Under the pieces are notes generated by a model that was given only the letters and a program-made list of their open reading frames with translations, had not been told where the DNA came from and did not search any database. Positions 3,665-64,000 of a stretch of DNA of 64,000 bases are shown piece after piece. The position numbers and the translations under genes are program-made. The number at the start of each line of letters is the position of its first letter. The stretch's first letter is position 1. Source of the DNA: Candidatus Oxydemutatoraceae bacterium (GTDB lineage: Bacteria; Pseudomonadota; Gammaproteobacteria; Poriferisulfidales; Oxydemutatoraceae); assembly GCA_965237985.1 (NCBI GenBank), contig OZ250161.1:1615012-1679011 (forward strand), given 5' to 3'.

Positions 3665-3813
3665 GAAAAAAAAGGTTTCAGGAGAAGGAGTGTTATCGGT
3701 GTTCGCTGCGGCTTGCTGAGGAACTGCGGGTAGAATGGCATGGGCTGCATTTTGTACCCACCCCCGGGGGCAAGTGGAAACAAGCCGTGAATTATAGATT
3801 GGGAGGATTAAGA

Positions 3814-4119
3814 ATGCCGGATGAAACCAAAGCGCAACAGCTTCTTCGCATTGAATCAGCGGTTTTTCAGCGGCTGGTCGAGCATTTGCGAGAACGTGCG
3901 GATGTTCAAAACATTGACTTGATGACGCTTGCTGACTTTTGTCGAAACTGTCTTGCAAAATGGTACGTGGCAGCGGCGAAAAACGAAGGTCTTTCTGTAG
4001 ACTATGAGCAGGCTCGCGAGCGGATTTACGGAATGCCGTATCGACAGTGGAAAGAAAAACACCAGACCCCGATGACTCCGGAACAGGAAAAAGCATTTGC
4101 CGCCCGTGAAAAACAATAA
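3814..4119 (+). CDS. Small conserved protein, DUF1244-like ('FCRNCLAKWY' motif)
   Basis: 101 aa, starting from ATG 3814. GGGAGG lies 7 nt upstream (3801-3806). The six-frame ORF begins at a GTG at 3787. It is antisense to the over-long mobA ORF. The family assignment is from memory of the FCRNCL motif. Confidence 0.55.
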   Translation: MPDETKAQQLLRIESAVFQRLVEHLRERADVQNIDLMTLADFCRNCLAKWYVAAAKNEGLSVDYEQARERIYGMPYRQWKEKHQTPMTPEQEKAFAAREKQ

Positions 4120-4904
4120 TGCCTGAAGCTGATTTCAGCAACACGCAGCTGCTGCGTTACAGCCGCCAGCTCATGCTTCCTGAAATTGGCTTGCAAGGAC
4201 AGCATACCCTGCAGGATTCCTGCGTTTTGATCATTGGCATGGGAGGACTGGGCATTCCTCTGGCGACCTACCTTGCCACCAGCGGCGTCGGCAAACTGAT
4301 TCTGGTTGACGGAGATCGGATTGAACTCGCCAATCTTCACCGCCAGCCCCTGTATCGTGAAAGTGATGTCGGGGCGGAAAAAGTCACCGTGGTTGCGGAG
4401 CGCTTGGCGGCATTGAATTCGGAAATTGAAATACAGACGTTCGGCCAGCGCGCCGATGAAGACATGGTCAGCGATCTGGCGATCGGGGCGCAAGTGGTGG
4501 CCGACAGCTCGGACAACTTTCAGACCCGTTTTGCCGTGAATCGCGCCTGCTGGAAAAGCACCAGGCCCTTGGTGAGCGCCGCAGTCATTCGTATGGAAGG
4601 GCAACTCACGGTTTTTGATTCCAGGAACCCGGAAAGCCCGTGCTACGCCTGCCTGTATCCGGAACGGGTGTCGGGACAACAGGAGGAAAGTTGCGTGGAA
4701 AGCGGCATAGTCGCGCCTTTGGCCGGAATGATGGGCTGTGCCCAGGCACTGGAAGTTACCAAACTACTGCTGGATATTGGTACCTCTTTGACTGGTCGGT
4801 TTTTGATGCTGGATGCCCGTCTGATGGAATGGCGTGAAATCCGCCTTCGGAAAAGTCCGGGCTGCACGGTGTGCGGGCCTGCGAACCAGGGTGCCCGTGA
4901 CTGA
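4119..4904 (+). CDS. moeB: Molybdopterin-synthase adenylyltransferase MoeB (ThiF/HesA family)
   Basis: 'LIIGMGGLGIPLATYLATSGVGKLILVDGDRIELANLHRQ', plus C-terminal CxxC pairs (CYAC...CTVCG). Its last ~50 nt form part of the downstream 125-bp repeat. Confidence 0.85.
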   Translation: MPEADFSNTQLLRYSRQLMLPEIGLQGQHTLQDSCVLIIGMGGLGIPLATYLATSGVGKLILVDGDRIELANLHRQPLYRESDVGAEKVTVVAERLAALNSEIEIQTFGQRADEDMVSDLAIGAQVVADSSDNFQTRFAVNRACWKSTRPLVSAAVIRMEGQLTVFDSRNPESPCYACLYPERVSGQQEESCVESGIVAPLAGMMGCAQALEVTKLLLDIGTSLTGRFLMLDARLMEWREIRLRKSPGCTVCGPANQGARD

Positions 4905-6390
4905 AACAGACACCCTGCTGACCCTGGAGATTACTGGTACCAGACTGGACATCCCGGGAACCGCACATGTTTCCAGGAAGTCCGGACTGCACGGTGTGCG
5001 GGCCTGCGAACCAGGGTGCCCGTGACTGAAACAGACACCCTGCTGACCCTGGAGATTACTGGTACCAGACTGGACATCCCGGGAACCGCACATGTTTCCA
5101 GGAAGTCCGGGCTGCACGGTGTGCACCTGCGAACCAGGGTGCCCGTGACTGAAACAGACACCCCGCTGACCCTGGAGATTACTGGTACCAGACTGGACAT
5201 CTTGGGAACCGCCTGCGAACCAGGGTGCCCGTGACTGAAACAGACACCCCGCTGACCCTGGAGATTACTGGTACCAGACTGGACATCCCGGGAACCGCAC
5301 ATGTTTCCAGGAAGTCCGGGCTGCACGGTGTGCGGGCCTGCGAACCAGGGTGAAACAGACACCCCGTGACTGAAACAGACACCCAGGAAGTCCGGGCTGC
5401 ACGGTGTGCGGACCTGCGAACCAGGGTGCCCGTGACTGAAACAGACACCCCGCTGACCCTGGAGATTACTGGTACCAGACTGGACATCCCGGGAACCGCA
5501 CATGTTTCCAGGAAGTCCGGGCTGCACGGTGTGCGGACCTGCGAACCAGGGTGCCCGTGACTGAAACAGACACCCCGCTGACCCTGGAGATTACTGGTAC
5601 CAGACTGGACATCCGGGAACCGCACATGTTTCCAGGAAGTCTGGGCTGCACGGTGTGCGGGCCTGCGAACCAGGGTGTACCCGTGACTGAAACAGACACC
5701 CTGCTGACCCTGGAGATTACTGGTACCAGACTGGACATCTTGGGAACCGCACATGTTTCCAGGAAGTCCGGGCTGCACGGTGTGCGGACCTGTGAACCAG
5801 GGTGCCCGTGACTGAAACAGACACCCCGCTGACCCTGGGATTACTGGTACCAGACTGGACATCTTGGGAACCGCACATGTTTCCAGGAAGTCCGGGCTGC
5901 ACGGTGTGCGGGCCTGCGAACCAGGGTGCCCGTGACTGAAACAGACACCCCGCTGACCCTGGAGATTACTGGTACCAGACTGGACATCTTGGGAACCGCA
6001 CATGTTTCCAGGAAGTCCGGGCTGCACGGTGTGCGGGCCTGTGAACCAGGGTGCCCGTGACTGAAACAGACACCCTGCTGACCCTGGAGATTACTGGTAC
6101 CAGACTGGACATCCCGGGAACCGCACATGTTTCCAGGAAGTCCAGGCTGCACGGTGTGCGGACCTGCGAACCAGGGTGCCCGTGACTGAAACAGATACCC
6201 TGCTGACCCTGGAGATTACTGGTACCAGACTGGACATCCCGGGAACCGCACATGTTTCCAGGAAGTCCGGGCTGCACGGTGTGCGGACCTGCGAACCAGG
6301 GTGCCCGTGACTGAAACAGACACCCCGCTGACCCTGGAGATTACTGGTACCAGACTGGACATCTTGGGAACCGCACATGTTTCCAGTATC
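4850..6390. repeat. Tandem array of ~125-bp units, about 12 copies, each copying the moeB 3' end plus the TraB-family gene 5' end
   Basis: The motif 'cccgtgactgaaacagacacc' recurs at 4893, 5018, 5141, 5225, 5430, 5553, 5680, 5807, 5930, 6052, 6180 and 6303. Each unit encodes '...PGCTVCGPANQGARD*' (moeB tail) and 'MPVTETDTxLTLEITGTRLDIxGTAHVS' (TraB head). The period is not a multiple of 3. Confidence 0.9.
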
Positions 6391-7497
6391 AGTCACCAGA
6401 CAGTCATGGAATTGGTTGGCAGCAGGACCTACGACTCAGTTGCGGTCGAGTTGTGCGCGCAGCGCGTACGCATGATTTTCGATGAAGAGAAATACTCCGA
6501 AACCGACATCTGGCAATTGATTAAAAAAAAGCAGATGGCGGCTTTTGCGACCGGCTTGCTTTTCAGTGCTTTTCAACGACGGGTTGCTGAACAAATAGGA
6601 GTGGAACCCGGCTCCGAATTGAAAGCAGCTGTGCGTTTGAGCCGGGAACAATCCATCACTCCGCTTTTGGTGGACCGAGATATTGGCATCACTTTCAAAC
6701 GCCTGCATCGGAGCTTGTCCTTCTGGACCCGACTTTCCATTCCTTCCCTGGTTTTTTTCAGCCTGTTTTCGCGTCAGAAAGTGTCAGCGGAAGAAATAGA
6801 GGCACTGAAAAAAGGCGATGTAGTTGCTTCTCTCTTTGAACAACTGGAACTGGGACACAAAGAAATTTATCAGGTTCTGATCAAGGAACGGGACTGTTAT
6901 ATGGCAACAAAACTTGTGGAATATATCCGCGCCCACAAGCCTTCCAGAATGTTGCTGGTGGTCGGTGCCGGGCATGTTCCCGGGTTGCTGCGGGAAATCC
7001 CTGTTGTCGGGACGGAACCGCAGACCACGCTACATGACCTTGAGGTCATCCCGCAGTCGGCAAGGTGGTTGAAGTATATTCCCTGGGTGATTGTGGCGGT
7101 AATCCTCGCTGGGTTTGCCGTCGGGTTCAGCAGGGATGTGGAACTCGGTTTCAGTCTGGTGCGCGACTGGGTGCTGATTAATGGTGGTCTGGCGGCTCTC
7201 GGGGCCCTGCTGGCGGGCGGGCACCCGCTTACGGTGGTTACCGCGTTCGTGGCGGCACCCCTGACTTCGATCAACCCGACGATCGGTGCCGGCATGGTGA
7301 CGGCGGCAGCCGAAATCTATTTACGCAAGCCACGTGTGAGTGACTTCAAGTCACTGAGAGAAAGTACGAACAGCCTTTTTGGCTGGCGAAAAAACCGCGT
7401 GGCACGAACGGTGTTGATTTTTTTTCTGAGCACTTTCGGTTCGATAGTGGGTACCTGGCTTGGTGGCCTGTGGATTTACGAAAGCCTGAGCGGGTGA
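6301..7497 (+). CDS. TraB/GumN family protein (pheromone-shutdown TraB-like)
   Basis: N-terminal 'ITGTRLDILGTAHVS' motif typical of TraB/GumN, and a C-terminal membrane segment. GTG start at 6301 in the last repeat unit. The length of the 5' overlap with moeB was not re-derived and may vary with repeat number. Confidence 0.7.
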   Translation: MPVTETDTPLTLEITGTRLDILGTAHVSSISHQTVMELVGSRTYDSVAVELCAQRVRMIFDEEKYSETDIWQLIKKKQMAAFATGLLFSAFQRRVAEQIGVEPGSELKAAVRLSREQSITPLLVDRDIGITFKRLHRSLSFWTRLSIPSLVFFSLFSRQKVSAEEIEALKKGDVVASLFEQLELGHKEIYQVLIKERDCYMATKLVEYIRAHKPSRMLLVVGAGHVPGLLREIPVVGTEPQTTLHDLEVIPQSARWLKYIPWVIVAVILAGFAVGFSRDVELGFSLVRDWVLINGGLAALGALLAGGHPLTVVTAFVAAPLTSINPTIGAGMVTAAAEIYLRKPRVSDFKSLRESTNSLFGWRKNRVARTVLIFFLSTFGSIVGTWLGGLWIYESLSG

Positions 7498-7672: not shown

Positions 7673-8016
7673 CAAGCGGCCAGTCGGTCTATAAGCCGGG
7701 TTCTGTGATCGATAGTCATCCATCTGCGGTGTACGTCACCGCACACCTCTTGCGGCCCACCCGAACCTTGGCGCGGGCTACGCGGTTCTAAATTTGGCCT
7801 TGCTCCAAGTGAGGTTTACCCCGCCGCGCATGTTGCCATCCGCGCGGTGCGCTCTTACCGCACCTTTTCACCCTTACCCGCAATAAAGCGGGCGGTATAT
7901 TTTCTGTGGCACTTTCTGTAGGCTCGCGCCCCCCAGGTGTTACCTGGCACTCTGCCCTGTGGAGCCCGGACTTTCCTCTGCTCGAAGGCAGCGACTATCC
8001 GACCGACTCGCCGATT
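7673..8016 (-). ncRNA. rnpB: RNase P RNA, bacterial type A
   Basis: Minus-strand sequence contains 'AGGAAAGTCCGGGCTCCACAGGGCAGAGTGCCAGGTAACACCTGGGGGG', 'GGTAAGGGTGAAAAGGTGCGGTAAGAGCGCACCGCGCGG', 'GGTAAACCTCACTTGGAGCAAGGCCAAAT' and 'ACAGAACCCGGCTTATAGACCGACTGGCC'. These are collinear with E. coli M1 RNA. The P1 helix pairs ggcgagtcggtc with gaccgactggcc. Confidence 0.85.
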
Positions 8017-8236: not shown

Positions 8237-11200
8237 TGGCAAGACCCGTTTCAGTCAGGCTTTGCCTGCTCACCCATGGTGGTGTCGTAACTCTGTAACC
8301 TCAGGCGATGCATGGTGTCCCGTGCCTGTTCCTGTTGATGTGTATAAGGCCCGAGCAATACTTGGAATCATGTCTGGAACCGTTTGTTGTCGTTCGCAGG
8401 GACAGCATCGGTGCGGACTTCGAAGCCCAGTTCGACTACGGTTTTTTCCAGTTTCAAAGCAAGACCCGTTTCAGTCAGGATTTGCCTGCTCACCCATGGT
8501 GGTGTCGTAACTCTGTAACCTCAGGCGATGCATGGTGTCCCGCGCCTGTTTCTGTTGATGTGTATAAGGCCCGAGCAATACTTGGAATCATGTCTGGAAC
8601 CGTTTGTTGCCGTTCGCAGGGACAGCATTGGTGCGGACTTCAAAGCCTGGTTCGACTACGGTTTTTTCCAGTTTCAAAGCAAGACCCGTTTCAGTCAGGC
8701 TTTGCCTGCTCACCCATGGTGGTGTCGTAACTCTGTAACCTCAGGCGATGCATGGTGTCCCGCGCCTGTTTCTGTTGATGTGTATAAGGCCCGAGCAATA
8801 CTTGGAATCATGTCTGGAACCGTTTGTTGCCGTTCGCAGGGACAGCATCGGTGCGGACTTCAAAGCCTGGTTCGACTACGGTTTTTTCCAGTTTCAAAGC
8901 AAGACCCGTTTCAGTCAGGATTTGCCTGCTCACCCATGGTGGTTGTCGTAACCCTGTAGTCTGAGGCGATGCATGGTGTCCCGCGCCTGTTTCTGTTGAT
9001 GTGTATAAGGCCCGAGCAATACTTGGAATCATGTCTGGAACTGTTTCTTGTCGTTCCCAAGGACAGCATTGGTGCGGGCTTCAAAGCCCAGTTCGACTAC
9101 GGTTTTTTCCAGTTTCAAAGCAAGACCCGTTTCAATCGGGATTTGCCTGCTCACCCATGGTGGTGTCGTAACCCTGTAACCTCAGGCGATGCATGGTGTC
9201 CCGCGCCTGTTTCTGTTGATGTGTATAAGGCCCGAGCAATACCTGGAATCATGTCTGGAACCGTTTGTTGCCGTTCGCAGGGACAGCATCGGTGCGGACT
9301 TCAAAGCCTGGTTCGGCTACGGTTTTTTCCCGTTTCAAAGCAAGACCCGTTTCAATCGGGATTTGCCTGCTCACCCATGGTGGTGTCGTAACCCTGTAAC
9401 CTCAGGCGATGCATGGTGTCCCGCGCCTGCATCCTGTTGATGTGTATAAGGCCCGAGCAATACTTGGAATCATGTCTGGAACTGTTTCTTGTCGTTCGCA
9501 AGGACAGCATTGGTGCGGGCTTCAAAGCCCAGTTCGACTACGGTTTTTTCCAGTTTCAAAGCAAGACCCGTTTCAGTCAGGATTTGCCTGCTCACCCATG
9601 GTGGTGTCGTAACCCTGTAGTCTGAGGCGATGCATGGTGTCCCGCGCCTGTTTCTGTTGATGTGTATAAGGCCCGAGCAATACTTGGAATCATGTCTGGA
9701 ACTGTTTCTTGTCGTTCGCAAGGACAGCATTGGTGCGGGCTTCAAAGCCCAGTTCGACTACGGTTTTTTCCAGTTTCAAAGTAAGACCCGTTTCAGTCAG
9801 GCTTTGCCTGCTCACCCATGGTGGTGTCGTAACCCTGTAACCTCAGGCGGTGCATGGTGTCCCGCGCCTGTTCCTGTTGATGTGTATAAGGCCCGAGCAA
9901 TACTTGGAACTGTTTTTTGTCGTTCGCAAGGACGGCATGGTGCGGGTTTCGAAGTCTGGTTCGGCTACGGTTTTTTCCAGTTTCAAAGCAAGACCCGTTT
10001 CAATCGGGATTTGCCTGCTCACCCATGGTGGTGTCGTAACCCTGTAGTCTGAGGCGATGCATGGTGTCCCGCGCCTGTTCCTGTTGATGTGTATAAGGCC
10101 CGAGCAATACTTGGAATCATGTCTGGAACCGTTTGTTGCCGTTCGCAGGGACAGCATCGGTGCGGACTTCAAAGCCTGGTTCGGCTACGGTTTTTTCCAG
10201 TTTCAAAGCAAGACCCGTTTCAATCGGGATTTGCCTGCTCACCCATGGTGGTGTCGTAACCCTGTAACCTCAGGCGATGCATGGTGTCCCGCGCCTGTTC
10301 CTGTTGATGTGTATAAGGCCCGAGCAATACTTGGAATCATGTCTGGAACCGTTTGTTGTCGTTCGCAAGGACAGCATGGTGCGGGCTTCAAAGCCTGGTT
10401 CGACTACGGTTTTTTCCAGTTTCAAAGCAAGACCCGTTTCAATCGGGATTTGCCTGCTCACCCATGGTGGTGTCGTAACCCTGTAACCTCAGGCGATGCA
10501 TGGTGTCCCGCGCCTGTTCCTGTTGATGTGTATAAGGCCCGAGCAATACTTGGAACTGTTGGAACCGTTTGTGTCGTTCGCAAGGACAGCATGGTGCGGG
10601 TTTCGAAGCCTGGTTCGGCTACGGTTTTTTCCAGTTTCAAAGCAAGACCCGTTTCAGTCAGGATTTGCCTGCTCACCCATGGTGGTGTCGTAACTCTGTA
10701 ACCTCAGGCGATGCATGGTGTCCCGTGCCTGTTTCTGTTGATGTGTATAAGGCCCGAGCAATACTTGGAATCATGTCTGGAACTGTTTCTTGTCGTTCGC
10801 AAGGACAGCATTGGTGCGGGCTTCAAAGCCCAGTTCGACTACGGTTTTTTCCAGTTTCAAAGCAAGACCCGTTTCAATCGGGATTTGCCTGCTCACCCAT
10901 GGTGGTGTCGTAACCCTGTAACCTCAGGCGATGCATGGTGTCCCGCGCCTGTTTCTGTTGATGTGTATAAGGCCCGTTTCAAAGCAAGACCCGTTTCAAT
11001 CGGGATTTCCCTGCTCACCCATGGTGGTGTCGTAACTCTGTAACCTCAGGCGATGCATGGTGTCCCGCGCCTGTTTCTGTTGATGTGTATAAGGCCCGAG
11101 CAATACTTGGAATCATGTCTGGAACCGTTTGTTGCCGTTCGCAGGGACAGCATGGTGCGGGTTTCGAAGTCTGGTTCGGCTACGGTTTTTTCCAGTTTCA

Positions 11201-12010
11201 AAGCAAGACCTGTTTCAATCGGGATTTGCCTGCTCACCCATGGTGGTGTCGTAACCCTGTAACCTCAGGCGACGCATGGTGTCCCGTGCCTGTTTCTGTT
11301 GATGTGTATAAGGCCCGAGCAATACTTGGAACTGTTTTTTGTCGTTCGCAAGGACGGCATGGTGCGGGTTTCGAAGTCTGGTTCGGCTACGGTTTTTTCC
11401 AGTTTCAAAGCAAGACCCGTTTCAGTCAGGATTTGCCTGCTCACCCATGGTGGTGTCGTAACCCTGTAACCTCAGGCGATGCATGGTGTCCCGCGCCTGT
11501 TTCTGTTGATGTGTATAAGGCCCGAGCAATACTTGGAATCATGTCTGGAACCGTTTGTTGTCGTTCGCAGGGACAGCATCGGTGCGGACTTCAAAGCCCA
11601 GTTCGGCTACGGTTTTTTCCAGTTTCAAAGCAAGACCCGTTTCAATCGGGATTTGCCTGCTCACCCATGGTGGTGTCGTAACTCTGTAACCTCAGGCGAT
11701 GCATGGTGTCCCGCGCCTGTTTCTGTTGATGTGTATAAGGCCCGAGCAATACTTGGAATCATGTCTGGAACCGTTTGTTGCCGTTCGCAAGGACAGCATC
11801 GGTGCGGACTTCAAAGCCTGGTTCGACTACGGTTTTTTCCAGTTTCAAAGCAAGACCCGTTTCAATCGGGATTTGCCTGCTCACCCATGGTGGTGTCGTA
11901 ACCCTGTAACCTCAGGCGATGCATGGTGTCCCGTGCCTGCTGGTTGGTATAAGGCCCGAGCAATACTTGGAACTGTTTCTTGTCGTTCGCAAGGACAGCA
12001 TTGGTGCGGG
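8237..12010. repeat. Tandem array of ~220-bp units, about 17 copies, degenerate copies of the 3' end of the SPOR-domain gene
   Basis: 'gcgatgcatggtgtcc' recurs at 8306, 8526, 8746, 8966, 9187, 9407 and onward, every 220 bp. Minus-strand translation of each unit gives 'KLEKTVVELGFEARTNAVLANDKKQFQ', matching the C-terminus of the gene at 11862..12380. Confidence 0.9.
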
Positions 12011-12380
12011 CTTCAAAGCCCAGTTCGACTACGGTTTTTTTCAGTTTCTCCGCATCGCTGTGCAGGGCAAAAACGCGCGATTGCAAGTGGTATATTTTTG
12101 CCGAACTCGGGTGGTTGTCAGAGTCCCCGGTGACCAGTTTTTGACGATCCTTGAGCAAAGTGAAATAAGTGTAGCGGGCCTGTTGCACTTCGTTGTCTGC
12201 CACTATCGGTTTTTTTGCTGATGGAACGGGTGGCGTTGCCGGATTTCTGTCTGCGTTTACCTGATAGAGGTAGATGGTCAACACCACGAAGCCGACAAGC
12301 CCGGCGAACAGCACCCACCGTGTGGGTTTTTTCTGTGCTGTTTCCAGTTCGTGGGCCCGGTGTTTGTAGTCCTTGATCAT
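11862..12380 (-). CDS. SPOR-domain protein (N-terminal TM anchor, C-terminal SPOR peptidoglycan-binding domain)
   Basis: Membrane helix 'WVLFAGLVGFVVLTIYLY'. C-terminal 'VVELGFEARTNAVLANDKKQFQVLLGPYTNQQARDTMHRLRLQGYD' fits the SPOR fold. It lies downstream of argS, as with SPOR genes in other gammaproteobacteria. Confidence 0.7.
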   Translation of the reverse strand: MIKDYKHRAHELETAQKKPTRWVLFAGLVGFVVLTIYLYQVNADRNPATPPVPSAKKPIVADNEVQQARYTYFTLLKDRQKLVTGDSDNHPSSAKIYHLQSRVFALHSDAEKLKKTVVELGFEARTNAVLANDKKQFQVLLGPYTNQQARDTMHRLRLQGYDTTMGEQANPD

Positions 12381-12498
12381 GACGTTTACGGTTTGGCAAC
12401 TGCTAAAACTGCAAGGGAATTTCTGCCCGCATCATCTGCCTATTTTCTTTGGGTTTTGTTACTTCCGGAAGTGGCACTCATAAAAAACATCACCTCCT

Positions 12499-18391: not shown

Positions 18392-19380
18392 ATCTGGAGG
18401 GGGTTGGTGTGTGCGCCATGGCATTTTGAATAAAAATTTCCACCAGTATTTCCTACCTCTTCTGTGAAGATTCTGGGCTTTCCAAGTGTCTTTATGCCGT
18501 TCCTTGGTTTTTCACCTTCCGCTAAAGCTGGGGTCGCGCCCAAGTTGCCGTCCGTTGCCGTTTTCGGCAAAGACTTTTTGCCTGGTCTACCAAGTTGCCG
18601 CGCCCCTTTGCCAGTCTGAGCATAACGGTTTCGTGGCTGTCTCTCTGCCTGTTGCCAGCTGCGTCCCGAGGAAAGTCGACGTGTCGACATCGGCCCGGAA
18701 TTTTCCACCATCCGGCATGAACTCCCCGTCACCAGCCGCCACTCACCATCAAGTCTCCACGTCCTGTTCATTGGAAGCTTCTTCCGCTAAAGCTGGGGTC
18801 GCGCCCAAGTTGCCGTCCGTTGCTGTTTTCGGCAAAGACTTTTTGCCCTGTATGCCCAACTCTTCCAGTTTTTTTGCCTGGTCTACCAAGTTGCCGCGCC
18901 CCTTTGCCAGTCTGAGCATAACGGTTTCGTGGCTTTCTCTCTGCCTGTTGCCAGCTGCGTCCCGAGGAAAGTCGACGTGTCGCCATCGGCCCGGAATTTT
19001 CCATCATCCGGCATGAACTCCCCGTCACCAGCCGCCACTCACCATCAAGTCGCCACGTCCTGTTCATTGGAAGCTTCTTCCGCTAAAGCTGGGGTCGCGT
19101 CCAAGTTGCCGTCCGTTGCCGTTTTCGGCAAAGACTTTTTGCCCTGTATGCCCAACTCTTCCAGTTTTTTTTGGCCTGGCCTACATAAGTTGCCGCGCCC
19201 CTTTGCCAGTCTGAGCATAACGGTTTCGTGGCTTTCTCTCTGCCTGTTGCCAGCTGCGTCCCGAGGAAAGTCGACGTGTCGCCATCGGCCCGGAATTTTC
19301 CACCATCCGGCATGAACTCCCCGTCACCAGCCGCCACTCACCATCAAGTCTCCACGTCCTGTTCATTGGAAGCTTCTTCC
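18392..19380. repeat. Composite repeat: a duplicate of the yajC 5' end and upstream region (18392-18520 copies 18175-18300), plus three extra ~299-bp tandem copies of the rmuC 3' end
   Basis: 'ttccgctaaagctggggtcgcg.ccaagttgccgtccgttgc' occurs at 18517, 18780, 19078 and 19378 (the last within rmuC). Minus-strand units encode 'GRPGKKSLPKTATDGNLGATPALAE', the rmuC C-terminus. 'ttctgtgaagattctgggctttccaagtgtctttatgccgttcc' occurs at 18243 and 18460. Confidence 0.85.
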
Positions 19381-20651
19381 GCTAAAGCTGGGGTCGCGCC
19401 CAAGTTGCCGTCCGTTGCTGTTTTCGGCAAAGACTTTTTGCCCTGTATGCCCAACTCTTCCAGTTTTTTTGCCTGGCCTACTAAGTTGCCGCGCCCCTTT
19501 GCCAGTCTGAGCATAACGGTTTCGTGGCTTTTGCAGGCCCGTTCCAGGTTTTTCCCCAAGTCTTTCGCAGACTCCAGGACGCCACTTACTTTATTGTAGA
19601 AAGACGCAGCCTGTCGCACAATTTTCTGGGTGTTCTCTTGCTGCTTGTGAGAGCGCCAGAGGTTTTCAATGATGCGTAAAGTCGGCATCAAGGTATTGAG
19701 CGTCACGAGTCCGACGCGCATTCGCAAAGACTCATCGAATAACGAGGAGTCTTCGTTCAGTGCCGCCGCCAGCGCGTTCTCCAAGGGCACAAACATGAGA
19801 ACGAAATCCAGCGAGTGGACCTGCGGCAGGTCTTGGTAGTTTTTCGCGGCCAGGTCTTTGATATGTTTGCGCATGGCTGCCAGGTGTGCTTTCAGGCATT
19901 TGCTTTTGGCCTCCTCGTTTTTTGCCTCCTGGGCGTTCAGGTAGTCGACCATATTCAGTTTTGAATCGATGATGACCTGGCGGTCAGTCGGCAATTCAAT
20001 CACTATGTCTGGGCGTAACAGGGTGCCGTCTTCGTTGCGATAGCTTTTCTGGGCGTGATAATCCACGCCTTCCTGCAGCCCTGCGGCTTCAAGGATGCGT
20101 CCCAGCTGCACTTCCCCCCAACTGCCTCGTACCTGCGGTGACCGACGCAAGGCGCTTACCAGCTCCTGCGCTTCGTGCGCCAGGGATTCATTTATTTCAC
20201 GTACGTTTTTCAAACCTTCAACCAGCGTGGTGCGCTCCCGGGTAGTTTCATGTCCTTGTCGTTCCAGTTGTTCGCGAAACTGCTGAAACGCTTCCTGAAG
20301 TGGTTTTACGGTGGCATTGAGTTCGCTTTTCCCACGTTCGGCGTAACGGCTGTCAAGCACCTTCATGCTTTTCAAAGTCGCCTGTTCGAGCCGCGCGTCG
20401 AGGGACTGTTCATGTTCTTGGTAAATTTGCGTGCGGCTTTCCAGTCGTGCGCACTCTTCACGTTGCAACTGATGCGCTGCACGTTCTTTTTCCAGTTCCG
20501 ATTGCTCGTGGCGAAGCTGCGTTTCCTGTTCCCGACACAAGGTCTCCACCTGCTTGCGTTTCTGTTGTTCCATTTTGTGTTTGTGCACGAAAAACATTGC
20601 CCCGATAGCGCCCCCCGCACCAGCGCCGAGCAATAAATAGATCACTTCCAC
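19344..20651 (-). CDS. rmuC: DNA recombination protein RmuC
   Basis: N-terminal TM, long coiled-coil region, C-terminal RmuC nuclease-like domain ('DFVLMFVPLENA'). 435 aa. Confidence 0.85.
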   Translation of the reverse strand: MEVIYLLLGAGAGGAIGAMFFVHKHKMEQQKRKQVETLCREQETQLRHEQSELEKERAAHQLQREECARLESRTQIYQEHEQSLDARLEQATLKSMKVLDSRYAERGKSELNATVKPLQEAFQQFREQLERQGHETTRERTTLVEGLKNVREINESLAHEAQELVSALRRSPQVRGSWGEVQLGRILEAAGLQEGVDYHAQKSYRNEDGTLLRPDIVIELPTDRQVIIDSKLNMVDYLNAQEAKNEEAKSKCLKAHLAAMRKHIKDLAAKNYQDLPQVHSLDFVLMFVPLENALAAALNEDSSLFDESLRMRVGLVTLNTLMPTLRIIENLWRSHKQQENTQKIVRQAASFYNKVSGVLESAKDLGKNLERACKSHETVMLRLAKGRGNLVGQAKKLEELGIQGKKSLPKTATDGNLGATPALAEEASNEQDVET

Positions 20652-20850
20652 TGTCGTCCTCCCGAAACAGAAAATATCAAGTATTCTGCATTTTATGCCG
20701 AGCTTTGCTTGTCCGCCGGGCAGGAATCCTACAGAGACACTCTCTGTTCAAAGCGGCCAGCATGGTCGCGCGCAGCTGCCGCGCCCCTCCGCCGGCAACA
20801 GTATTCAGGATGGTGCGGTTATGGTCATCCGGATACGTCACGCCAGCTCA

Positions 20851-22089
20851 CTAGGGTTCTTGCCGACTTTCCCCGGTAGGCTTCATCGGCGGCAGGGTCT
20901 GCTTCCCTCTCGTGTGCTCGCTCTGCCTGAGTAGTGCCCAGCGGACGTGCTCGCGCACCAAGGGTGAGGAGTGGTTCGTTCTACTGCGCAACGCCTGAGC
21001 CACCTTTTTGCTGCGCGGCGCGTTGCCGAGCCCCACGGCAAGATTGCGCAGCCAGCGTTCGTAACCCAGTCGGCGCAAAGTGCTGCCACGCGTCCGGGCA
21101 GCAAAGTCTTTTTCATCCCAGTCCCAGAGAGACAGCAAAGTCGCAGCGTCCAGTCCCTTGCGCACCTGGAAAGCAGTTTCTTCGCTGGTTTTCGCAAAAC
21201 GGTTCCAAGGGCAGATGGTCTGGCAATCGTCGCAGCCGAAAATACGATTGCCGATCAACGGTCTCAGTGTTTCCGGGATAGTCCCTTTGTGCTCGATAGT
21301 GAGGTAAGCGATGCAACGACTTGCGTCCAACCGGTATGGTGCGATGATGGCACGGGTCGGACACACATCCAAGCAGCGTCGGCAACTGCCACAGTGGTTT
21401 TTTGCGGGACGGGAAACGGGGAGCGGGAGGTTGGTGTAGAGCTCGCCGAGAAAAAACCACGAACCCACACGGCGATTGAGCACCAAGGTGTTTTTCCCAA
21501 TCCAGCCCAAACCCGCTTGTTCGGCAATGGCTTTTTCCATGACCGGGGCACTGTCGCAAAAAGCTCGGTAATGAAAAGTTCCGGCGGCCTGAGTAATTTT
21601 GTCAGCGAGTTTCTGCAAACGTTTGCGTATCAGTTTGTGGTAATCACCACCAAGTGCGTAGCGGGCAATCTGTGCCAGGTCGGAAGCGTCTTCGTCGAGG
21701 CCATGACCGGCAACCCCGGGCGGCAAATAATTCATCCGTACTGAAATGATGGTTAGGGTTCCGGGCATCAGTTGTGCCGGACGCGTACGCTTGGTGCCAT
21801 GTTTTTCCATGAATGCCATGTCGCCGTGCATGCCATCGCGCAACCAATTCAGCAGGCGACTTTCGTGTTCGCCGATGTCTGCGTGACTGATTCCGGTCGC
21901 CTGAAAGCCCAGCTCGCTTGCCCACCGCTTGATTCGTTGCACCAGTCTTCGCAGCTTCGTTGTAGCAAGCGAGGTGTCGCCTGACACGCTGGTTTGGTGA
22001 GTTGGCGAACCGCGGGTTTTCACGCTGGCCTGGTTGGTTAGCGGGTCGCGGGCTTTCACGCTGACCTGTGGCAAGTCATGGGCTTTCAT
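20851..22089 (-). CDS. queG: Epoxyqueuosine reductase QueG (start uncertain; N-terminus overlaps an in-frame 66-bp repeat)
   Basis: 'RIKRWASELGF', 4Fe-4S ferredoxin cysteines 'CGSCRRCLDVCP' and 'CDDCQTICPWN', HEAT-like C-terminus. The conserved part begins near 'TTKLRRLVQRIKRW'. The upstream 50 aa are repeat-encoded. Confidence 0.8.
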   Translation of the reverse strand: MKAHDLPQVSVKARDPLTNQASVKTRGSPTHQTSVSGDTSLATTKLRRLVQRIKRWASELGFQATGISHADIGEHESRLLNWLRDGMHGDMAFMEKHGTKRTRPAQLMPGTLTIISVRMNYLPPGVAGHGLDEDASDLAQIARYALGGDYHKLIRKRLQKLADKITQAAGTFHYRAFCDSAPVMEKAIAEQAGLGWIGKNTLVLNRRVGSWFFLGELYTNLPLPVSRPAKNHCGSCRRCLDVCPTRAIIAPYRLDASRCIAYLTIEHKGTIPETLRPLIGNRIFGCDDCQTICPWNRFAKTSEETAFQVRKGLDAATLLSLWDWDEKDFAARTRGSTLRRLGYERWLRNLAVGLGNAPRSKKVAQALRSRTNHSSPLVREHVRWALLRQSEHTRGKQTLPPMKPTGESRQEP

Positions 22090-22520
22090 GCTGTTTGGTT
22101 GGCGAACCGCGGGCTTTCACGCTGACCTGCGGCGAGTCATGGGCTTTCATGCTGGTTTGGTTGGTTAGCGAACCGCGGGCTTTCATGCTGGCCTGGTTTG
22201 GTTGGTTGTGGCAAGTCATGGGCTTTTGCTGGTTTGGTTGGTTAGCGAACCGCGGGCTTTCACGCTGACCTGTGGCAAGTCATGGGCTTTCATGCTGACC
22301 TGTTGGTTAGCGAACCGCGGGCTTTCATGCTGGCCTGTGGCAAGTCATGGGCTTTCATGCTGGCCTGGTTGGTTAGCGGGTCGCGGGCACTCATGCTGAC
22401 CTGTGGCAAGTCATGGGCTTTCATGCTGACTTGCGGGGAGTCATGGGCTTTCATGCTGGCCTGGTTGGTTAGCGGGGCGCGGGCTTTCACGCTGGCCTGC
22501 GGCGAGTCATGAGTTTTCAC
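21960..22520. repeat. Tandem 66-bp repeat, about 8 units, in frame with queG on the minus strand, encoding (MKAHDLPQVSVKARDPLTNQAS)n
   Basis: Alternating 'gacctgtggcaagtcatgggctttcatgctg' and 'gcctggttggttagcgggtcgcgggctttcacgct' units between 22021 and 22520. Every unit carries an in-frame ATG on the minus strand. Confidence 0.85.
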
Positions 22521-22703: not shown

Positions 22704-24203
22704 ATGCTTCCCCTGTACACCTCTCGGCAAAGCAAAAAGCTTGACGAGATCATTATTGGTACCGGCCTGATCAGTGGTGCCGAATTGATGAGCCGCGCCG
22801 CCCATGCGTGCTTCGATGAAATCGTGAAACGTTGGTCGGAAGCCAGAGAAATCACGATTTTCGCAGGTCCTGGCAACAACGGAGGGGACGGATATTTGCT
22901 GGGTGCCTTGTTGTTGCTTGAAGACAGGTACGACGTAAAACTGGTGGCGTGCGCAGCAGGGAGGACTTTGTCGAGGGATGCCTCTGCGGCGCGGGAACAA
23001 TTTTTGGCAGGAGGAGGTTCGGAGTTTCCAGCAGGGACTCTGCTGCGCGGAGATTTGCTGGTCGACGCCATGTTCGGTACCGGCCTGAAACGGCCTCTGG
23101 ATGCCGATACATTATCGATAGTGGGCCATATCAATGACGCGCAATGCACCGTGCTGGCCGTGGATGTGCCAAGCGGGCTGAACTCGGATACCGGAGCCAT
23201 GATGCCGCAGGCCGTGCGAGCGGATGCAACCGTTACATTCATTGTCCGCAAACAGGGACTGTACACCGCTCAAGGTCGCGATTGTTGCGGAGAAATCGTT
23301 TTTGCCTCCCTGGGGGAGTGGCAAGAAGTACTCGCCGAGGAACCGGCAGCGGCGCAGTTGCTTTCCTACCGCGATGTCTGTGGACATCTGTCGCCCTGTC
23401 GCCGTGATGTTCATAAAGGTGATCTGGGTCACGTCTTAGTCATCGGCGGCAACCATGGCACGGCCGGTGCGGCGCGGCTTTGTGCCGAGGCGGCATTGCG
23501 CAGTGGTGCCGGATTGGTGAGCGTCGCCACACGTCCTGAGCACGTGGCAACAATCGCCGCCGATTGTCCGCCCCTGATGGTGCATGCCGTGTCCGGCGCG
23601 AAAGAAGCACTGCCGCTGACAGCCCGTGCCGATATTGTGGCCGTGGGGCCGGGGCTGGGGCAAGATGACTGGGCGATGGAGATGATGTCGGTGGCTCTGG
23701 ATGCGAAACAATGGCGGGTTGTGGATGCCGACGCGCTGAATTTGCTCGCCATCGAACCGTGCCGTTCGCAACGCTGGGTGCTGACGCCGCACCCTGGCGA
23801 GGCAGGACGGATGCTGGGGATTTCCAGTGCCGAGGTGCAAAAAGACCGCTTTCTGGCGTTGGCACAGCTGCGCGAACGCTATGGTGGGGTGTGCGTCCTC
23901 AAAGGTTCCGGCACACTGCTTGCGGCACATGACATGCCTTGCCCCACCGTCGTCCTGCCCGGTAATCCCGGGATGGCGACAGCGGGTGCCGGTGATGTCT
24001 TGACCGGCGTGGTGGCGGGTTTGCTCGCCCAAGGCTTGAAGCCGGAGGTGGCCGCACAAACTGCGGTGTGTGTGCACGCGCAGGCCGGAGATGATGCCGC
24101 GCAGAGTGGTGAGCGCGGCCTGCTGGCGACGGACATTCTGGCGGCCTTGCGCAGACGAGTGAACCCTGGCATGGATGCGAATGACGAAAAGGCTGTTTGT
24201 TGA
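22704..24203 (+). CDS. nnr: Bifunctional NAD(P)H-hydrate repair enzyme Nnr (YjeF_N epimerase plus YjeF_C ADP-dependent dehydratase)
   Basis: N-terminal 'IFAGPGNNGGDGYL', C-terminal 'VIGGNHGTAGAARL...GPGLG...GNPGMATAGAGDVLTG'. nnr-tsaE-amidase order matches E. coli yjeF-yjeE-amiB. Confidence 0.85.
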   Translation: MLPLYTSRQSKKLDEIIIGTGLISGAELMSRAAHACFDEIVKRWSEAREITIFAGPGNNGGDGYLLGALLLLEDRYDVKLVACAAGRTLSRDASAAREQFLAGGGSEFPAGTLLRGDLLVDAMFGTGLKRPLDADTLSIVGHINDAQCTVLAVDVPSGLNSDTGAMMPQAVRADATVTFIVRKQGLYTAQGRDCCGEIVFASLGEWQEVLAEEPAAAQLLSYRDVCGHLSPCRRDVHKGDLGHVLVIGGNHGTAGAARLCAEAALRSGAGLVSVATRPEHVATIAADCPPLMVHAVSGAKEALPLTARADIVAVGPGLGQDDWAMEMMSVALDAKQWRVVDADALNLLAIEPCRSQRWVLTPHPGEAGRMLGISSAEVQKDRFLALAQLRERYGGVCVLKGSGTLLAAHDMPCPTVVLPGNPGMATAGAGDVLTGVVAGLLAQGLKPEVAAQTAVCVHAQAGDDAAQSGERGLLATDILAALRRRVNPGMDANDEKAVC

Positions 24204-38309: not shown

Positions 38310-41300
38310 GAATTCATGGTGGAACGCAGCGGTGTCTGAGCGACCGGAAAGTATCGTTTCCCGTGGTCACGGCACAATGGGCTTGCGGTCATGCATATTC
38401 CGGAAGTCAGACCATCCGGTACCGAGTGGTTGCGCAAATCCGGCATCATACTTTTGACTGTCATCAGTTTCTTTTGGACATTGGCATTCATGGTGGAACG
38501 CAGCGGTGTCTGAGCGACCGGGAAATATCGTTTCCTGCGGTCACGGCATAATGGGTTTGCGGTCATGCGTATTCCGGAAGTCAGACCATCCGGTACCGAG
38601 AGGTTGCGCAAATCCGGCATCATACTTTCGGCAGCCATCAGTGTCTTTTGGACATTGGCATTCATGGTGGAACGCAGCGGTGTCTGAGCGTTCGGAAAGT
38701 ATCGTTTCCCGTGGTCACGGCATAATGGGTTTGCGGTCATGCATATTCCGGAAGTCAGGCCATCCAGTACCGAGAGGTTGCGCAAATCCAGCACTACATT
38801 TTCGGTAGTCATCAGTGTCTTTTGGACATTGGCATTCATGGTGGAACGCAGCGGTGTCTGAGCGACCGGAAAATATCGTTTCCCGTGGTCACGGCATAAT
38901 GGGCTTGCGGTCATGCATATTCCGGAAGTCAGACCATCCGGTACCGAGGGGTTGCGCAAATCCAGCACTACTTTTCGACTAGTCATCAGTTTCTTTTGGA
39001 CATTGGCATTCATGGTGGAACGCAGCGGTGTCTGTGAGCGACCGGAAAGTATCGTTTCCCGTGGTCACGGCATAATGGGTTTGCGGTCATGCATATTCCG
39101 GAAGTCAGACCATCCGGTACCGAGAGGTTGCGCAAATCCGGCATCATACTTTTCGACAGTCATCAGTTTCTTTTGGACATTGGCATTCATGGTGGAACGC
39201 AGCGGTGTCTGAGCGTTCGGAAAATATCGTTTCCTGCGGTCACGGCATAATGGGTTTGCGGTCATGCGTATTCCGGAAGTCAGACCATCCGGTACCGAGA
39301 GGGTTGCGCAAATCCAGCACTGCATTTTCGGCAGTCATTAGTGTCTTTTGGACATTGGCATTCATGGTGGAACGCAGCAGTGCCTGAGTGAGCGACCGGA
39401 AAATATCGTTTCCCGTGGTCACGGCATAATGGGCTTGCGGTCATGCGTATTCCGGAAGTCAGACCATCCGGTACCGAGGGGGTTGCGCAAATCCGGCACA
39501 TATTTTCGGCAGTCATCAGTGTCTTTTGGACATTGGCATTCATGGTGGAACGCAGCGGTGCCTGAGCGTTCGGAAAATATCGTTTCCGTGGTCACGGCAT
39601 AATGGGGTCGTGGTCATGCGTATTCCGGAAGTCAGACCATCCGGTACCGAGAGGTTGCGCAAATCCGGCATCATACTTTTGACTGTCATTAGTTTCTTTT
39701 GGACATTGGCATTCATGGTGGAACGCAGCGGTGTCTGAGCGACCGGAAAATATCGTTTCCTGCGGTCACGGCATAATGGGTTTGCGGTCATGCGTATTCC
39801 GGAAGTCAGACCATCCGGTCACCGAGAGGGTTGCGCAAATCCAGCATCATTTTCGGCAGTCATCAGTGTCTTTTGGACATTGGCATTCATGGTGGAACGC
39901 AGCGGTGTCTGAGCGTTCGGAAAATATCGTTTCCTGCGGTCACGGCATAATGGGTTTGCGGTCATGCATATTCCGGAAGTCAGACCATCCGGTACCGAGG
40001 GGGTTGCGCAAATCCGGCACTGCATTTTCGGCAGTCATCAGTGTCTTTTGGACATTGGCATTCATGGTGGAACGCAGCGGTGTCTGAGCGACCGGAAAGT
40101 ATCGTTTCCCGTGGTCACGGCATAATGGGTTGCGGTCATGCGTATTCCGGAAGTCAGACCATCCGGTACCGAGGGGTTGCGCAAATCCGGCACTGTATTT
40201 TCGGCAGTCATCAGTGTCTTTTGGACATTGGCATTCATGGTGGAACGCAGCGGTGTCTGAGCGACCGGAAAGTATCGTTTCCTGTGGTCACGGCATAATG
40301 GGTTTGCGGTCATGCGTATTCCGGAAGTCAGACCATCCGGCACCGAGAGGTTGCGCAAATCCAGCATCATACTTTCGACTGTCATCAGTTTCTTTTGGAC
40401 ATTGGCATTCATGGTGGAACGCAGCGGTGTCTGAGCGACCGGAAAGTATCGTTTCCTGCGGTCACGGCATAATGGGTTTGCGGTCATGCGTATTCCGGAA
40501 GTCAGGTCACCCTTCACAGAGGGGTTGCGCAAATCCGGCACTGTATTTTCGGCAGTCATCAGTGTCTTTTGGACATTGGCATTCATGGTGGAACGCAGCG
40601 GTGCCTGAGTGAGCGACCGGGAAATATCGTTTCCTGCGGTCACGGCATAATGGGCTTGCGGTCATGCTATTCCGGAAGTCAGGCCATCCGGTACCGAGGG
40701 GGTTGCGCAAATCCGGCATCATACTTTCGGCAGTCATCAGTGTCTTTTGGACATTGGCATTCATGGTGGAACGCTTGAGCGACCGGGAAATATCGTTTCC
40801 TTGGCACAATGGGTTTGCGGTCATGCGTATCACAGAGGGGTTGCGCAAATGGCACTATATTTTCAGCAGTGTCTTTTGGACATTGGCATTCATGGTGGAA
40901 CGCAGCGGTGTCTGTGCGACCGGAAAGTATCGTTTCCCGTGGTCACGGCATAATGGGCTTGCGGTCATGCGTATTCCGGAAGTCAGACCATCCGGTCCGA
41001 GAGGTTGCGCAAATCCGGGATTTTCAGGAGGCCAGGGGGTTGCGCAAATCCGGCATCATACTTTTGACTGTCATCAGTTTCTTTTGGACATTGGCATTCA
41101 TGGTGGAACGCAGCGGTGTCTGCGACCGGAAAGTATCGTTTCCTGCGGTCACGGCATAATGGGTTTGCGGTCATGCGTTTCCGGAAGTCAGGCCATCCGG
41201 TACCGAGAGGTTGCGCAAATCCAGCATCATACTTTTGACTGTAAGTTTCTTTTGGGCATTGGCATTCATGGTGGAACGCAGCGGTGCTGATGAGCGTCCG

Positions 41301-42950
41301 GAAAATAGGTCACGGCATAATGGGTTTGCGGTCATGCGTATTCCGGAACCGAGAGGGGGTTGCGCAAATCCAGCACTGTATTTTCGGCACTGTTGAACAT
41401 TGGCATTCATGATGGAACGCAGCGGTGTCTGAGTGATCGGAAAGTATCGTTTCCTGTGGTCACGGCATAATGGGTTTGCGGTCATGCGTATTCCGGGTCA
41501 GACCATTACCGATGATTGCGATACGCAGCATTAGTTTCTTTTGAACATTGGCATTCATGGTGGAACGCAGCGGTGTCTGTGCGACCGGAAAATATCGTTT
41601 CCCGCGGTCACGGCATAATGGGTTTGCGGTCATGCATATTCCGGAAGTCAGGCCATCCGGTACCGAGAGGTTGCGCAAATCCGGCACTATATTTTCGGCA
41701 GCCATTAGTTTCTTTTGGACATTGGCATTCATGGTGGAACGCAGCGGTGTCTGAGCGACCGGAAAGTATCGTTTCCTGCGGTCACGGCATAATGGGTTTG
41801 CGGTCATGCGTATTCCGGAAGTCAGGCCATCCGGTACCGAGAGGTTGCGCAAATCCGGCACTATATTTTCGGCAGCCATCAGTGTCTTTTGAACATTGGC
41901 ATTCATGGTGGAACGCAGCGGTGTCTGTGCGACCGGAAAGTATCGTTTCCTGCGGTCACGGCATAATGGGTTTGCGGTCATGCGTATTCCGGAAGTCAGG
42001 CCATCCCTTCACCGAGGGGTTGCGCAAATCCGGCACATATTTTCGGCAGCCATCAGTGTCTTTTGGACATTGGCATTCATGGTGGAACGCAGCAGTGCCT
42101 GAGTGAGCGTCCGGGAAATATCGTTTCCTGCGGTCACGGCATAATGGGCTTGCGGTCATGCGTATTCCGGAAGTCAGGTCATCCAGTACCGAGAGGTTGC
42201 GCAAATCCGGCATCATACTTTCGGCAGTCATCAGTGTCTTTTGGACATTGGCATTCATGGTGGAACGCAGCGGTGTCTGTGCGACCGGAAAGTATCGTTT
42301 CCTGCGGTCACGGCATAATGGGTTTGCGGTTATGCATATTCCGGAAGTCAGGCCATCCAGTACCGAGAGGTTGCGCAAATCCAGCACTACATTTTCGGTA
42401 GCCATCAGTGTCTTTTGGGCATTGGCATTTATGGTGGAACGCAGCGGTGTCTGAGCGACCGGAAAGTATCGTTTCCCGTGGTCACGGCATAATGGGTTTG
42501 CGGTAATGCGTATTCCGGAAGTCAGGTCACCCAGTACCGAGAGGTTGCGCAAATCCAGCACTACATTTTCGGTAGCCATCAGTTTCTTTTGGACATTGGC
42601 ATTCATGGTGGAACGCAGCGGTGCCTGAGCGACCGGAAAGTATCGTTTCCCGTGGTCACGGCATAATGGGTTTGCGGTCATGCATATTCCGGAAGTCAGG
42701 TCATCCGGTACCGAGGGGTTGCGCAAATCCGGCACTATATTTTCGGCAGTCATCAGTTTCTTTTGAACATTGGCATTCATGGTGGAACGCAGCGGTGTCT
42801 GAGCGTTCGGAAAATATCGTTTCCTGCGGTCACGGCATAATGGGTTTGCGGTAATGCGTATTCCGGAAGTCAGGTCACCCTTCACAGAGGGATTGCGCAA
42901 ATCTGGCACTACATTTTCGGTAGCCATCAGTTTCTTTTGGACATTTTGTT
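38310..42950. repeat. Tandem array of ~176-bp units, about 26 copies, each copying the murJ 5' end (about 90 nt) plus about 85 nt of upstream sequence
   Basis: 'ttttggacattggcattcatggtggaacgcagcggtg' recurs about every 176 bp from 38474 to 42945. The last unit diverges from genuine murJ immediately after 'ttttggacatt'. Plus-strand frames give '...RKSGTTFSVAISVFWTLAFMVERSGV*'. Confidence 0.9.
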
Positions 42951-51653: not shown

Positions 51654-51659
51654 CACTAA

Positions 51660-52140: not shown

Positions 52141-52604
52141 ACCCCACCCAAGACCTGTAAAGCACCAACAGCCCGCTGTCCGCACAACCCCTTCCCCGCG
52201 CGGCTCACTTTTACAGACAACACTCCCAACCTACAACGCGCCACCAGAAAATTCCCCAAAATCTAAAGCAAAGTGAGCGTATCCCCCGCCAAAGCCAGTC
52301 CGGGCCGTGGCAGGGGCTAATAAATCTGTCAGATGAGGAGGATGCCAGAGGCTGCCGATGCTGAGGAGGATGCCAGAGGCTGCCGATGCTAGAGACCGCT
52401 CCTGACAAAAATCGCCTTTCGGATTCTTTCAAATGTCACCTGATAGAGCTGCGGATTTTCCAGGTGCGTTGGTGTTGAGAAGCACGGACTGTGGTGTAGA
52501 GATGAGAGGTGATAAAAAAGGATTTCGTGTTGATAAATTGCAGATACAAAACACCTCAGCGGCATGTTTTTGGAAACCATTTTGGAATTCTTCCGATCAA
52601 CGTG

Positions 52605-55967: not shown

Positions 55968-55968
55968 C

Positions 55969-63998: not shown

Positions 63999-64000
63999 AG

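Follow-up and report, generated by a model that had tools for sequence, protein, structure and literature searches.

A minisatellite of duplicated moeB-traB gene junctions in a sponge-associated gammaproteobacterium

How can the boundary between two genes be copied a dozen times in tandem while both genes stay whole? The question arises from a stretch of 64,000 nucleotides of a Candidatus Oxydemutatoraceae bacterium (GenBank assembly GCA_965237985.1, contig OZ250161.1, positions 1,615,012 to 1,679,011 of the forward strand), here called the window, in which a tandem array at 4853-6386 repeats the end of moeB and the beginning of the following gene, traB. From the analyses described here, the moeB-traB array is a locally born and still-evolving minisatellite of a duplicated gene junction, and a symptom of an unusually repeat-prone symbiont lineage. 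Locally derived tandem repeats are a known class, of which this is a further case at a duplicated gene junction, and the interest lies mainly in the lineage-wide pattern and less in the moeB-traB locus itself.

The array and its flanking genes

Analysis of the window with Tandem Repeats Finder (TRF) placed 12.0 copies of a 125-bp period between 4853 and 6386, in agreement with the original prediction of about 12 tandem copies of the junction at that period. The units lie head to tail, and each consists of about 50 nt of the moeB 3' end, the motif GTGACTGA and about 79 nt of the traB 5' end. When the array was cut at the recurring unit start, 12 units were obtained, measuring 125, 125, 209, 76, 125, 124, 127, 124, 125, 125, 125 and 124 bp. 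The GTGACTGA junction motif was counted 13 times in these 12 units because unit 3 has two, and a search for the stop/start motif GTGACTGAAACAGACACCC gave 13 matches, all of them within the array, where 100 shuffles gave an expectation of 0. A novel joint from traB to moeB (GGAACCGCACATGTTTCCAG running into GAAGTCCGGGCTGCACGG, or ...TTTCCAG/GAAGTCC...) was found 10 times at one mismatch or fewer, again with 0 expected. Head-to-tail units with one common joint are the arrangement of a minisatellite. The parts of the array are as follows.

4853-6386, + strand: tandem array, TRF period 125, 12.0 copies, score 1580 (also unit dissection, and motif counts against shuffles)
4853-4977, + strand: unit 1, the sole unit with its moeB part attached to the rest of moeB
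4978-6262, + strand: units 2-11, interior gene-fragment copies, drifting (unit dissection and alignment)
5126-5298, + strand: secondary 86-bp duplication (two copies) within unit 3 (5103-5311); TRF period 86, 97% matches, spacing from 5145 to 5231
5312-5387, + strand: unit 4, 76 bp, truncated and rearranged (alignment)
6263-6386, + strand: unit 12, the sole unit whose traB part runs on into the gene, with the ortholog-like Pro9 and Leu22

The variant units predicted near 5141-5400 are thus real, being the 86-bp duplication and the 76-bp unit at 5312-5387, and the duplication measures 86 bp where 84 bp had been given. The joint of the 86-bp duplication has a GC microhomology, and unit 4 carries the scars of a microhomology-mediated deletion and of template switching, with microhomologies of 2-4 nt.

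The genes on either side, which form a co-directional cluster, are intact, moeB and traB being full length and scoring above curated cut-offs.

3787-4119, + strand: DUF1244 gene, first of the DUF1244-moeB-traB cluster (Pfam PF06844, E 2e-35); its stop overlaps the moeB ATG
4119-4904, + strand: moeB, molybdopterin-synthase adenylyltransferase, intact, 261 aa (NCBIfam NF004281, 284.9 bits against a cut-off of 266)
6307-7497, + strand: traB, TraB family, intact (TIGR00261, 269.8 bits against a cut-off of 178.35)

Unit 1 holds the last 52 nt of moeB, and with them its second CxxC motif and its stop (4902-4904). At the other end of the array, GTG 6307 of traB is aligned with the ATG of its orthologues, and GTG 6301 is an alternative start two codons upstream. 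The array period of 125 is 2 mod 3, and therefore neither moeB nor traB can be extended in frame by the array, as had been predicted. Nor is the array an in-frame coding repeat, since there are 12-15 stops in every + frame.

The GTGACTGA motif combines a start codon in the traB frame with a TGA in each of the two other frames. Translation from each junction GTG gives a predicted relay of short ORFs (open reading frames) that leads from the end of moeB to the start of traB.

4897-6310, + strand: relay of nine short ORFs, 29-84 codons
4897-5025, + strand: relay ORF 1
5022-5234, + strand: relay ORF 2
5231-5353, + strand: relay ORF 3
5366-5560, + strand: relay ORF 4
5557-5811, + strand: relay ORF 5
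5808-5939, + strand: relay ORF 6
5932-6060, + strand: relay ORF 7
6057-6185, + strand: relay ORF 8
6182-6310, + strand: relay ORF 9

Relative to the next GTG of the chain, these ORFs end at +1 nt (a GTGA overlap, at seven of the nine steps), +5 nt or -15 nt, and the last stop of the relay (6308-6310) overlaps the traB GTG at 6307, also as GTGA. From what is known of translational coupling, ribosomes would pass by re-initiation along this relay from the moeB stop to the traB start. Because each unit brings its own stops and start, no number of units and no indel shifts the frame of moeB or traB. It had also been proposed that the array offers about a dozen alternative starts for traB and alternative 3' ends for moeB, and this was not supported: translation of moeB ends at the first TGA it meets (4902-4904), the last GTG (6307) alone leads into the rest of traB, and the other GTGs open ORFs of 29-84 codons that end at or next to the following junction.

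A scan for promoters and terminators found no promoter-like or terminator-like site on the + strand inside the array, and a weak - strand terminator-like match inside it (5397-5381) was not above background. Read-through transcription of the array is plausible because promoter-like and + strand terminator-like sites are missing from it. The Rfam scan found nothing in the array, and its sole match was the RNase P RNA (bacterial class A, 7676-8010, - strand, 303.8 bits), which lies directly downstream of traB and between two arrays. Two further candidates were rejected. A functional RNA in the two-unit fold (z = -3.3) proved to be mostly short palindromes of adjacent repeats pairing, and a higher-order repeat (TRF also lists periods of 250 and 375) was not seen in the variant table, which is a mosaic with no regular two- or three-unit super-repeat.

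Origin and decay of the units

A TraB search with one genome per species gave two close relatives, L001 (OZ244118.1, 'uncultured Ca. Porisulfidus sp.', TraB identity 85%) and L002 (OZ243039.1, 'Ca. Oxydemutatoraceae bacterium', TraB identity 83%), both of them collinear with window positions 1-22000 at about 80% nucleotide identity. The order DUF1244-moeB-traB is found in both, and each has a single moeB/traB junction in which the moeB stop and the traB start overlap as ATGA. An alignment matches the 125-bp unit to this single-copy junction base for base, as is expected of a minisatellite derived from its own locus, and no copy of the unit was found outside the array within the 64-kb window. 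The collinear single-copy junction in the relatives, together with a unit that occurs nowhere else in the window, argues for a local duplication and not an inserted mobile element. The original prediction had taken the units for copies of the moeB-stop/traB-start junction, and had named as the contrary outcome an identical array in related strains together with units derived from elsewhere; the collinearity with the relatives' junction upholds its view, the relatives do not share the array, and the unit was not found elsewhere in the window.

The array, now at 12 units against one in genomes that are about 20% diverged, arose after the lineage had split from those of L001 and L002. Since all units have the same joint, a single duplication appears to have founded the array, which was then amplified. 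No convincing microhomology was found at the founding breakpoints; TTC-N4-AAGTCC stands on both sides, but a crossover at TTC did not produce the joint. In metagenome contigs, an exact search for the novel joint gave 0 matches, and the relatives that a search with TraB brought up were all at 49% identity or less.

We also observed that, immediately before the traB start, window 4885-4904 differs in length by 1 nt from L001/L002 9990-10008. This alters the C-terminal tail of moeB (PANQGARD before the stop in the window, AVKPFVR and TAKPLAI in L001 and L002) and moves its stop out of the ATGA overlap, to a position 5 nt beyond the start codon. It is now the short relay ORFs, and not moeB, that use the ancestral -4 overlap.

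The interior units are non-functional, decaying orphan gene fragments. Unit 3 has lost 2 nt, units 6 and 8 have each lost 1 nt, and unit 7 has gained TA. Among the units of the 125-bp array there are 9 substitution columns, all of them transitions, and the mean pairwise substitution divergence of the ten near-full-length units is 2.6%. All four gametes were present at six of six pairs of informative sites in the unit variant table, and therefore the units have exchanged sequence. The residue before G[TS]AH[VIL]S is Leu in 157 of the 158 TraB homologues of the fetched loci and Pro in none, whereas Pro stands at this near-invariant position in seven of the 13 traB N-terminal fragments and the terminal copy has Leu. 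Selection has therefore acted only on the terminal copy, and the Pro copies count further against the use of the interior GTGs as traB starts. Of the substitutions that had been reported among the units, P/L is real, and A/T is a GGGCC/GGACC site read in the short-ORF frame. The turnover that had been read from the unit variants was borne out by the secondary duplication and deletion, the indels, the mosaic of variants, the lack of the array in the two nearest genomes and copy differences in sister arrays.

Across four arrays of the window (4853-6386, 8239-12048, 18575-19531 and 38312-42945), the differences between units are biased towards transitions, with 64 transition against 15 transversion columns. 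The 125-bp array contributes 9 transitions against 0 transversions, and its rare variants are all G:C to A:T. Ordinary mutation bias could account for this, or it may hint at weak mismatch or uracil repair.

Arrays elsewhere in the window and the clade

The moeB-traB array is one instance of a lineage-wide property, in which a sponge-associated gammaproteobacterial clade (its nearest records are labelled Ca. Porisulfidus and Ca. Oxydemutatoraceae) accumulates gene-boundary arrays with periods of 80-500 bp. The window has six gene-boundary arrays, and all six of its large arrays overlap a gene end. Besides the junction array, TRF identified the following.

8239-12048: 220-bp array of about 17 units, at the 3' end of a SPOR-domain gene
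18575-19531: 296-bp array of 3.2 units, at the 3' end of rmuC (19344-20651, - strand)
22047-22519: complex array with periods of 30, 66 and 96 bp, including the first ~43 nt of queG (20851-22089, - strand)
38312-42945: 174/348-bp array of about 26 units, at the 5' end of murJ, filling the divergent queA-murJ spacer
51434-52155: 238-bp array of 3 units, from the 3' half of atpC (51234-51653) and the DNA downstream

No 10-mers of note were common to the 125-bp unit and the units of the other window arrays. More generally, units of different arrays had no k-mers in common unless the loci were homologous, and a search for a motif common to units of different arrays, as a possible signal of a site-specific process, found none. 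The arrays occupy different loci in different genomes, as in L001, which has a 494-bp array of three units in the mobB region.

Coverage was calculated from TRF arrays with a period of at least 50 bp. A MurJ cluster of relatives provided four more loci, L161-L164, of which L162 is from the L001 genome. Tandem-repeat coverage was 19.0% in the window, 13.5% in L001, 3.6% in L002, 14.3% in L161, 8.6% in L162, 4.6% in L163 and 10.6% in L164. The figure for 78 other traB loci, 1.25 Mb in all, was 0.07%. Loci L161, L162 and L164 come from one sample (ERZ25071281) and are about 98% identical over unique sequence, yet their copy number differs at four arrays.

180-bp unit: 4 copies in L161, 2 in L162, 2 in L164
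311-bp unit: 2 copies in L161, 1 in L162, 2 in L164
185-bp unit (queA-murJ): 7.4 copies in L161, 6 in L162, 3 in L164
186-bp unit: none in L161, 2 copies in L162, 4 in L164

These differences among such similar strains indicate that this class of array is actively variable.

A bolder reading goes beyond relaxed selection and places the clade in a lineage-specific state of hyper-duplication, caused by the loss or alteration of some function in replication or repair, or by an unknown process at gene ends. Gene-boundary minisatellites would then make up well over 6% of the chromosome, above Ehrlichia ruminantium; arrays like that at moeB-traB would survive by preserving translational coupling through their relay ORFs, and they might act as heritable, fast-changing modifiers of operon stoichiometry. 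We hold this proposal to be tentative and rather doubtful.

Several details of the individual arrays can be added. The array at 8239-12048 has the RNase P RNA on one side and the SPOR-domain gene (11862-12380, - strand) on the other, and about 190 nt from the 3' end of that gene form part of its unit; the locus is single copy in L001, and the rnpB-SPOR spacer of L002 has an unrelated 303-bp array of 1.9 units (11869-12455). At the homologous rmuC 3' site, L001 has a 250-bp repeat of two units (20686-21185, where the L001 locus ends) with k-mers in common, and L002 is single copy. The complex array at 22047-22519 lies in the spacer before an nnr/yjeF gene (22704-24203). The 174-bp period of the queA-murJ array is a multiple of 3, and long ORFs cross 38312-42945 on both strands. 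The queA-murJ spacer is shortest in L163, at 319 bp, and longest in the window, at 4547 bp; the 185-bp array that relatives have there, with 3 to 7.4 units, lies at 5967-7326 in L161, 8977-10093 in L162 and 9493-10053 in L164. The first copy of the atpC array gives an intact epsilon subunit of 139 aa, copies 2 and 3 are frameshifted at the C-terminus, and the array was not found in L161-L164. A 227-bp duplication of two units in L001 (11160-11619) spans the traB stop, so that traB is hit at its other end in another genome.

Mechanism, alternative explanations and known systems

We consider it likely that the moeB-traB array is a locally generated minisatellite without a selected function of its own. 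One illegitimate, essentially homology-free event would have duplicated 125 bp, from about codon 246 of moeB to about codon 27 of traB, making a single new traB-to-moeB joint, and replication slippage or unequal recombination between sister strands would then have raised the direct repeat to 12 units. Since then the array would have been reshuffled by further exchange among its units and by template switching at microhomologies. Because the duplicated segment spans the gene junction, both genes stay whole, with the first unit completing moeB, the last one beginning traB and the ten between them drifting as orphans. Tolerance would come from GTGACTGA, which is predicted to reset translation in every unit whatever the copy number or the indels, and the chain of short ORFs would reproduce the -4 (NTGA) stop/start overlap of the orthologous single-copy junctions (ATGA). 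Because of this built-in stop/start reset in three frames, any copy number would be harmless to translation and the array nearly neutral, and gene boundaries may be the only places where selection lets such duplications persist. Even taken alone, the array would be a clear natural example of why tandem duplications of junctions persist, the outer copies keeping both genes whole.

Some points weigh against this account. A single assembly is the basis for both the exact number of units and the contiguity of the array, and the copy number should be treated as approximate. The founding joint requires one extra change, a G where moeB has A, so that the breakpoint is only partly explained. No conspecific strain was found among exact-protein look-ups (moeB, DUF1244 protein, AtpD and MurJ) or by the MurJ search. 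Many of the 78 comparison loci belong to short-read metagenome-assembled genomes (MAGs), which collapse or break at repeats, so that the contrast in coverage is inflated. Finally, the unbroken relay could also mean selection to keep traB expressed.

The last point can be taken further, to an array that is a selected expression rheostat or contingency device, in which TraB output relative to MoeB is tuned or switched by the number of coupling steps, each below 100% efficiency, or by the Leu or Pro variant before GTAHVS that unequal crossing-over places beside the traB body. Such a device would make sense of a relay of short ORFs that is unbroken from the moeB stop to the traB start with GTGA at its last step, of Pro/Leu variants at a near-invariant TraB position in recombining units, and of sister arrays that differ in copy number between close strains. 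However, the relay is automatic from the junction sequence, since TGA is present in both other frames of GTGACTGA, and needs no selection, and copy number cannot alter the frame of either gene. Like arrays are also found at gene 3' ends and in divergent spacers, where there is no such logic, and the interior units of this one, which is not in the two nearest genomes, contain indels and rearrangements. We therefore regard a selected device as improbable. An artefact of assembly or library would leave a true genome with one or a few units, the remainder having come from minimizer-graph mis-resolution or from polymerase chain reaction (PCR) template switching in an amplified low-input HiFi (high-fidelity long-read) library. 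The exact copy number of such arrays is indeed hard to assemble, related MAGs are PacBio HiFi data assembled with metaMDBG, and in at least one related project of this kind PCR-amplified ultra-low-input libraries were used (PMC12988363). Against this, the units are not identical, with 9 mosaic substitution columns, indels of four kinds, the 86-bp duplication nested in unit 3 and the truncated unit 4, a pattern that artefactual expansion would not produce; the class of array recurs at different loci on six independent contigs of the clade, and an array of 1.5 kb is far below a HiFi read of about 10 kb, all of which makes an artefact very unlikely.

Two other explanations scarcely need to be entertained. 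The unit could be a mobile intercistronic repeat of the MIRU type (mycobacterial interspersed repetitive unit) with a short ORF of its own, inserted at the traB start and multiplied there, since its ORF is coupled to the downstream gene at the -4 nt spacing known from MIRUs (PMC12548453), at seven of the nine steps including the last one onto traB. The unit, however, consists of orthologous sequence (moeB 3' end and traB 5' end) that is collinear with the L001 and L002 junction, has no sequence in common with other arrays and, where a MIRU would have related units at many loci, does not occur elsewhere in the 64-kb window, for which this reading is effectively refuted. It is equally hard to credit that the array encodes functional products, whether + strand peptides of 42-44 aa or - strand ORFs of 198-282 aa (4931-5527 and 5179-6027), although ORFs are open on both strands. 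Since 125 is not divisible by 3, the long ORFs of the - strand traverse all three frames of the unit; the peptide sequences differ through frameshifts; there are roughly 3 synonymous against 6 non-synonymous substitutions in the parental frames; and the sequence comes from two known genes, in an array that the relatives do not have.

As a minisatellite of local origin, the array has its closest analogue in the tandem repeats of E. ruminantium. Those arrays, some units of which may include gene ends, are reported to have been described by Collins et al. (2005, PNAS) and Frutos et al. (2006, J Bacteriol). They have a mean period of 138.7 bp and a mean of 4.8 copies, make up 6.3% of the genome by TRF, which is described as the highest reported for bacteria, and expand and contract between strains, which is ascribed to slipped-strand mispairing (PMC10710844, PMC3287509). 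In both cases there are numerous arrays, their periods lie at about 100-500 bp, and they are found in non-coding DNA or at gene boundaries. E. ruminantium is an obligate intracellular alphaproteobacterium, whereas the present organism is a sponge-associated gammaproteobacterium of about 2-3 Mb; the local density here is above the E. ruminantium figure, at 19% of the window and 3.6-14% in relatives, for sampled loci and not whole genomes; and the unit here spans two overlapping and translationally coupled genes. The VNTR-141 and VNTR-105 loci (variable number tandem repeats) of Wolbachia are intergenic, with periods of 105-141 bp and units 98-99% alike (PMC3287509). They resemble the present array in the internal deletions of some units, and their copy number varies among close strains, but their units have hairpins and are not built from flanking gene ends, and repeats, at about 1-1.6% of the genome, are far scarcer. 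MIRU-VNTRs are tandem units within operons; each has a short ORF whose coupling to the following cistron, at -4 nt, is thought to minimise the effect on expression of the downstream gene (PMC12548453). The GTGA overlaps of the relay are like theirs; MIRUs, however, are a dispersed and apparently mobile family with a common consensus, whereas the 125-bp unit is specific to its locus in the window and derived from a junction.

Phase-variable contingency loci, such as those of Neisseria and Haemophilus, are also repeat arrays; they have units of 1-10 bp, and their copy number, which changes by slippage, alters reading frame or promoter spacing. In the present array, unlike these loci, every unit has a stop and a start, so that the frame of either gene is independent of copy number: however many units there are, the first one holds the moeB stop and the last one, here unit 12, the traB start. 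A likely mechanism for the expansion, contraction and microhomology rearrangement of repeats of about 100 bp is RecA-independent slippage and sister-strand exchange at long direct repeats, a laboratory phenomenon reportedly described by the Lovett laboratory with E. coli reporter constructs. We know of no wild-type E. coli locus with comparable arrays. The TRF content of E. coli is 0.38% (PMC3287509).

The array draws attention to a little-studied symbiont lineage in which minisatellites make up 4-19% of the DNA sampled. If the pattern is genome-wide, the clade would offer a second independent system, beside E. ruminantium, for studying the causes of long-unit tandem amplification, and ready-made, high-resolution strain markers for sponge symbiont populations. 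Gene callers will yield spurious strings of short ORFs and mis-set gene starts in such regions. The gene-call collection had no entry for the exact moeB product, although the MurJ protein of this genome is in the protein collection.

Minor observations concern other parts of the same genomes. L162 (1-3447) and L164 (1-3314) have two adjacent copies of a gene pair, Peptidase_M78/HTH_3 and DUF4411, which is a gene-scale tandem duplication in genomes that have short-unit arrays. In the window, hsdM (N6_Mtase and HsdM_N by Pfam) and three ORFs after it, putatively the rest of a type I restriction-modification cluster, occupy 52784-59642. The last part of the window, 62000-64000, has a GC content of 36% against about 53% elsewhere, and may be acquired DNA.

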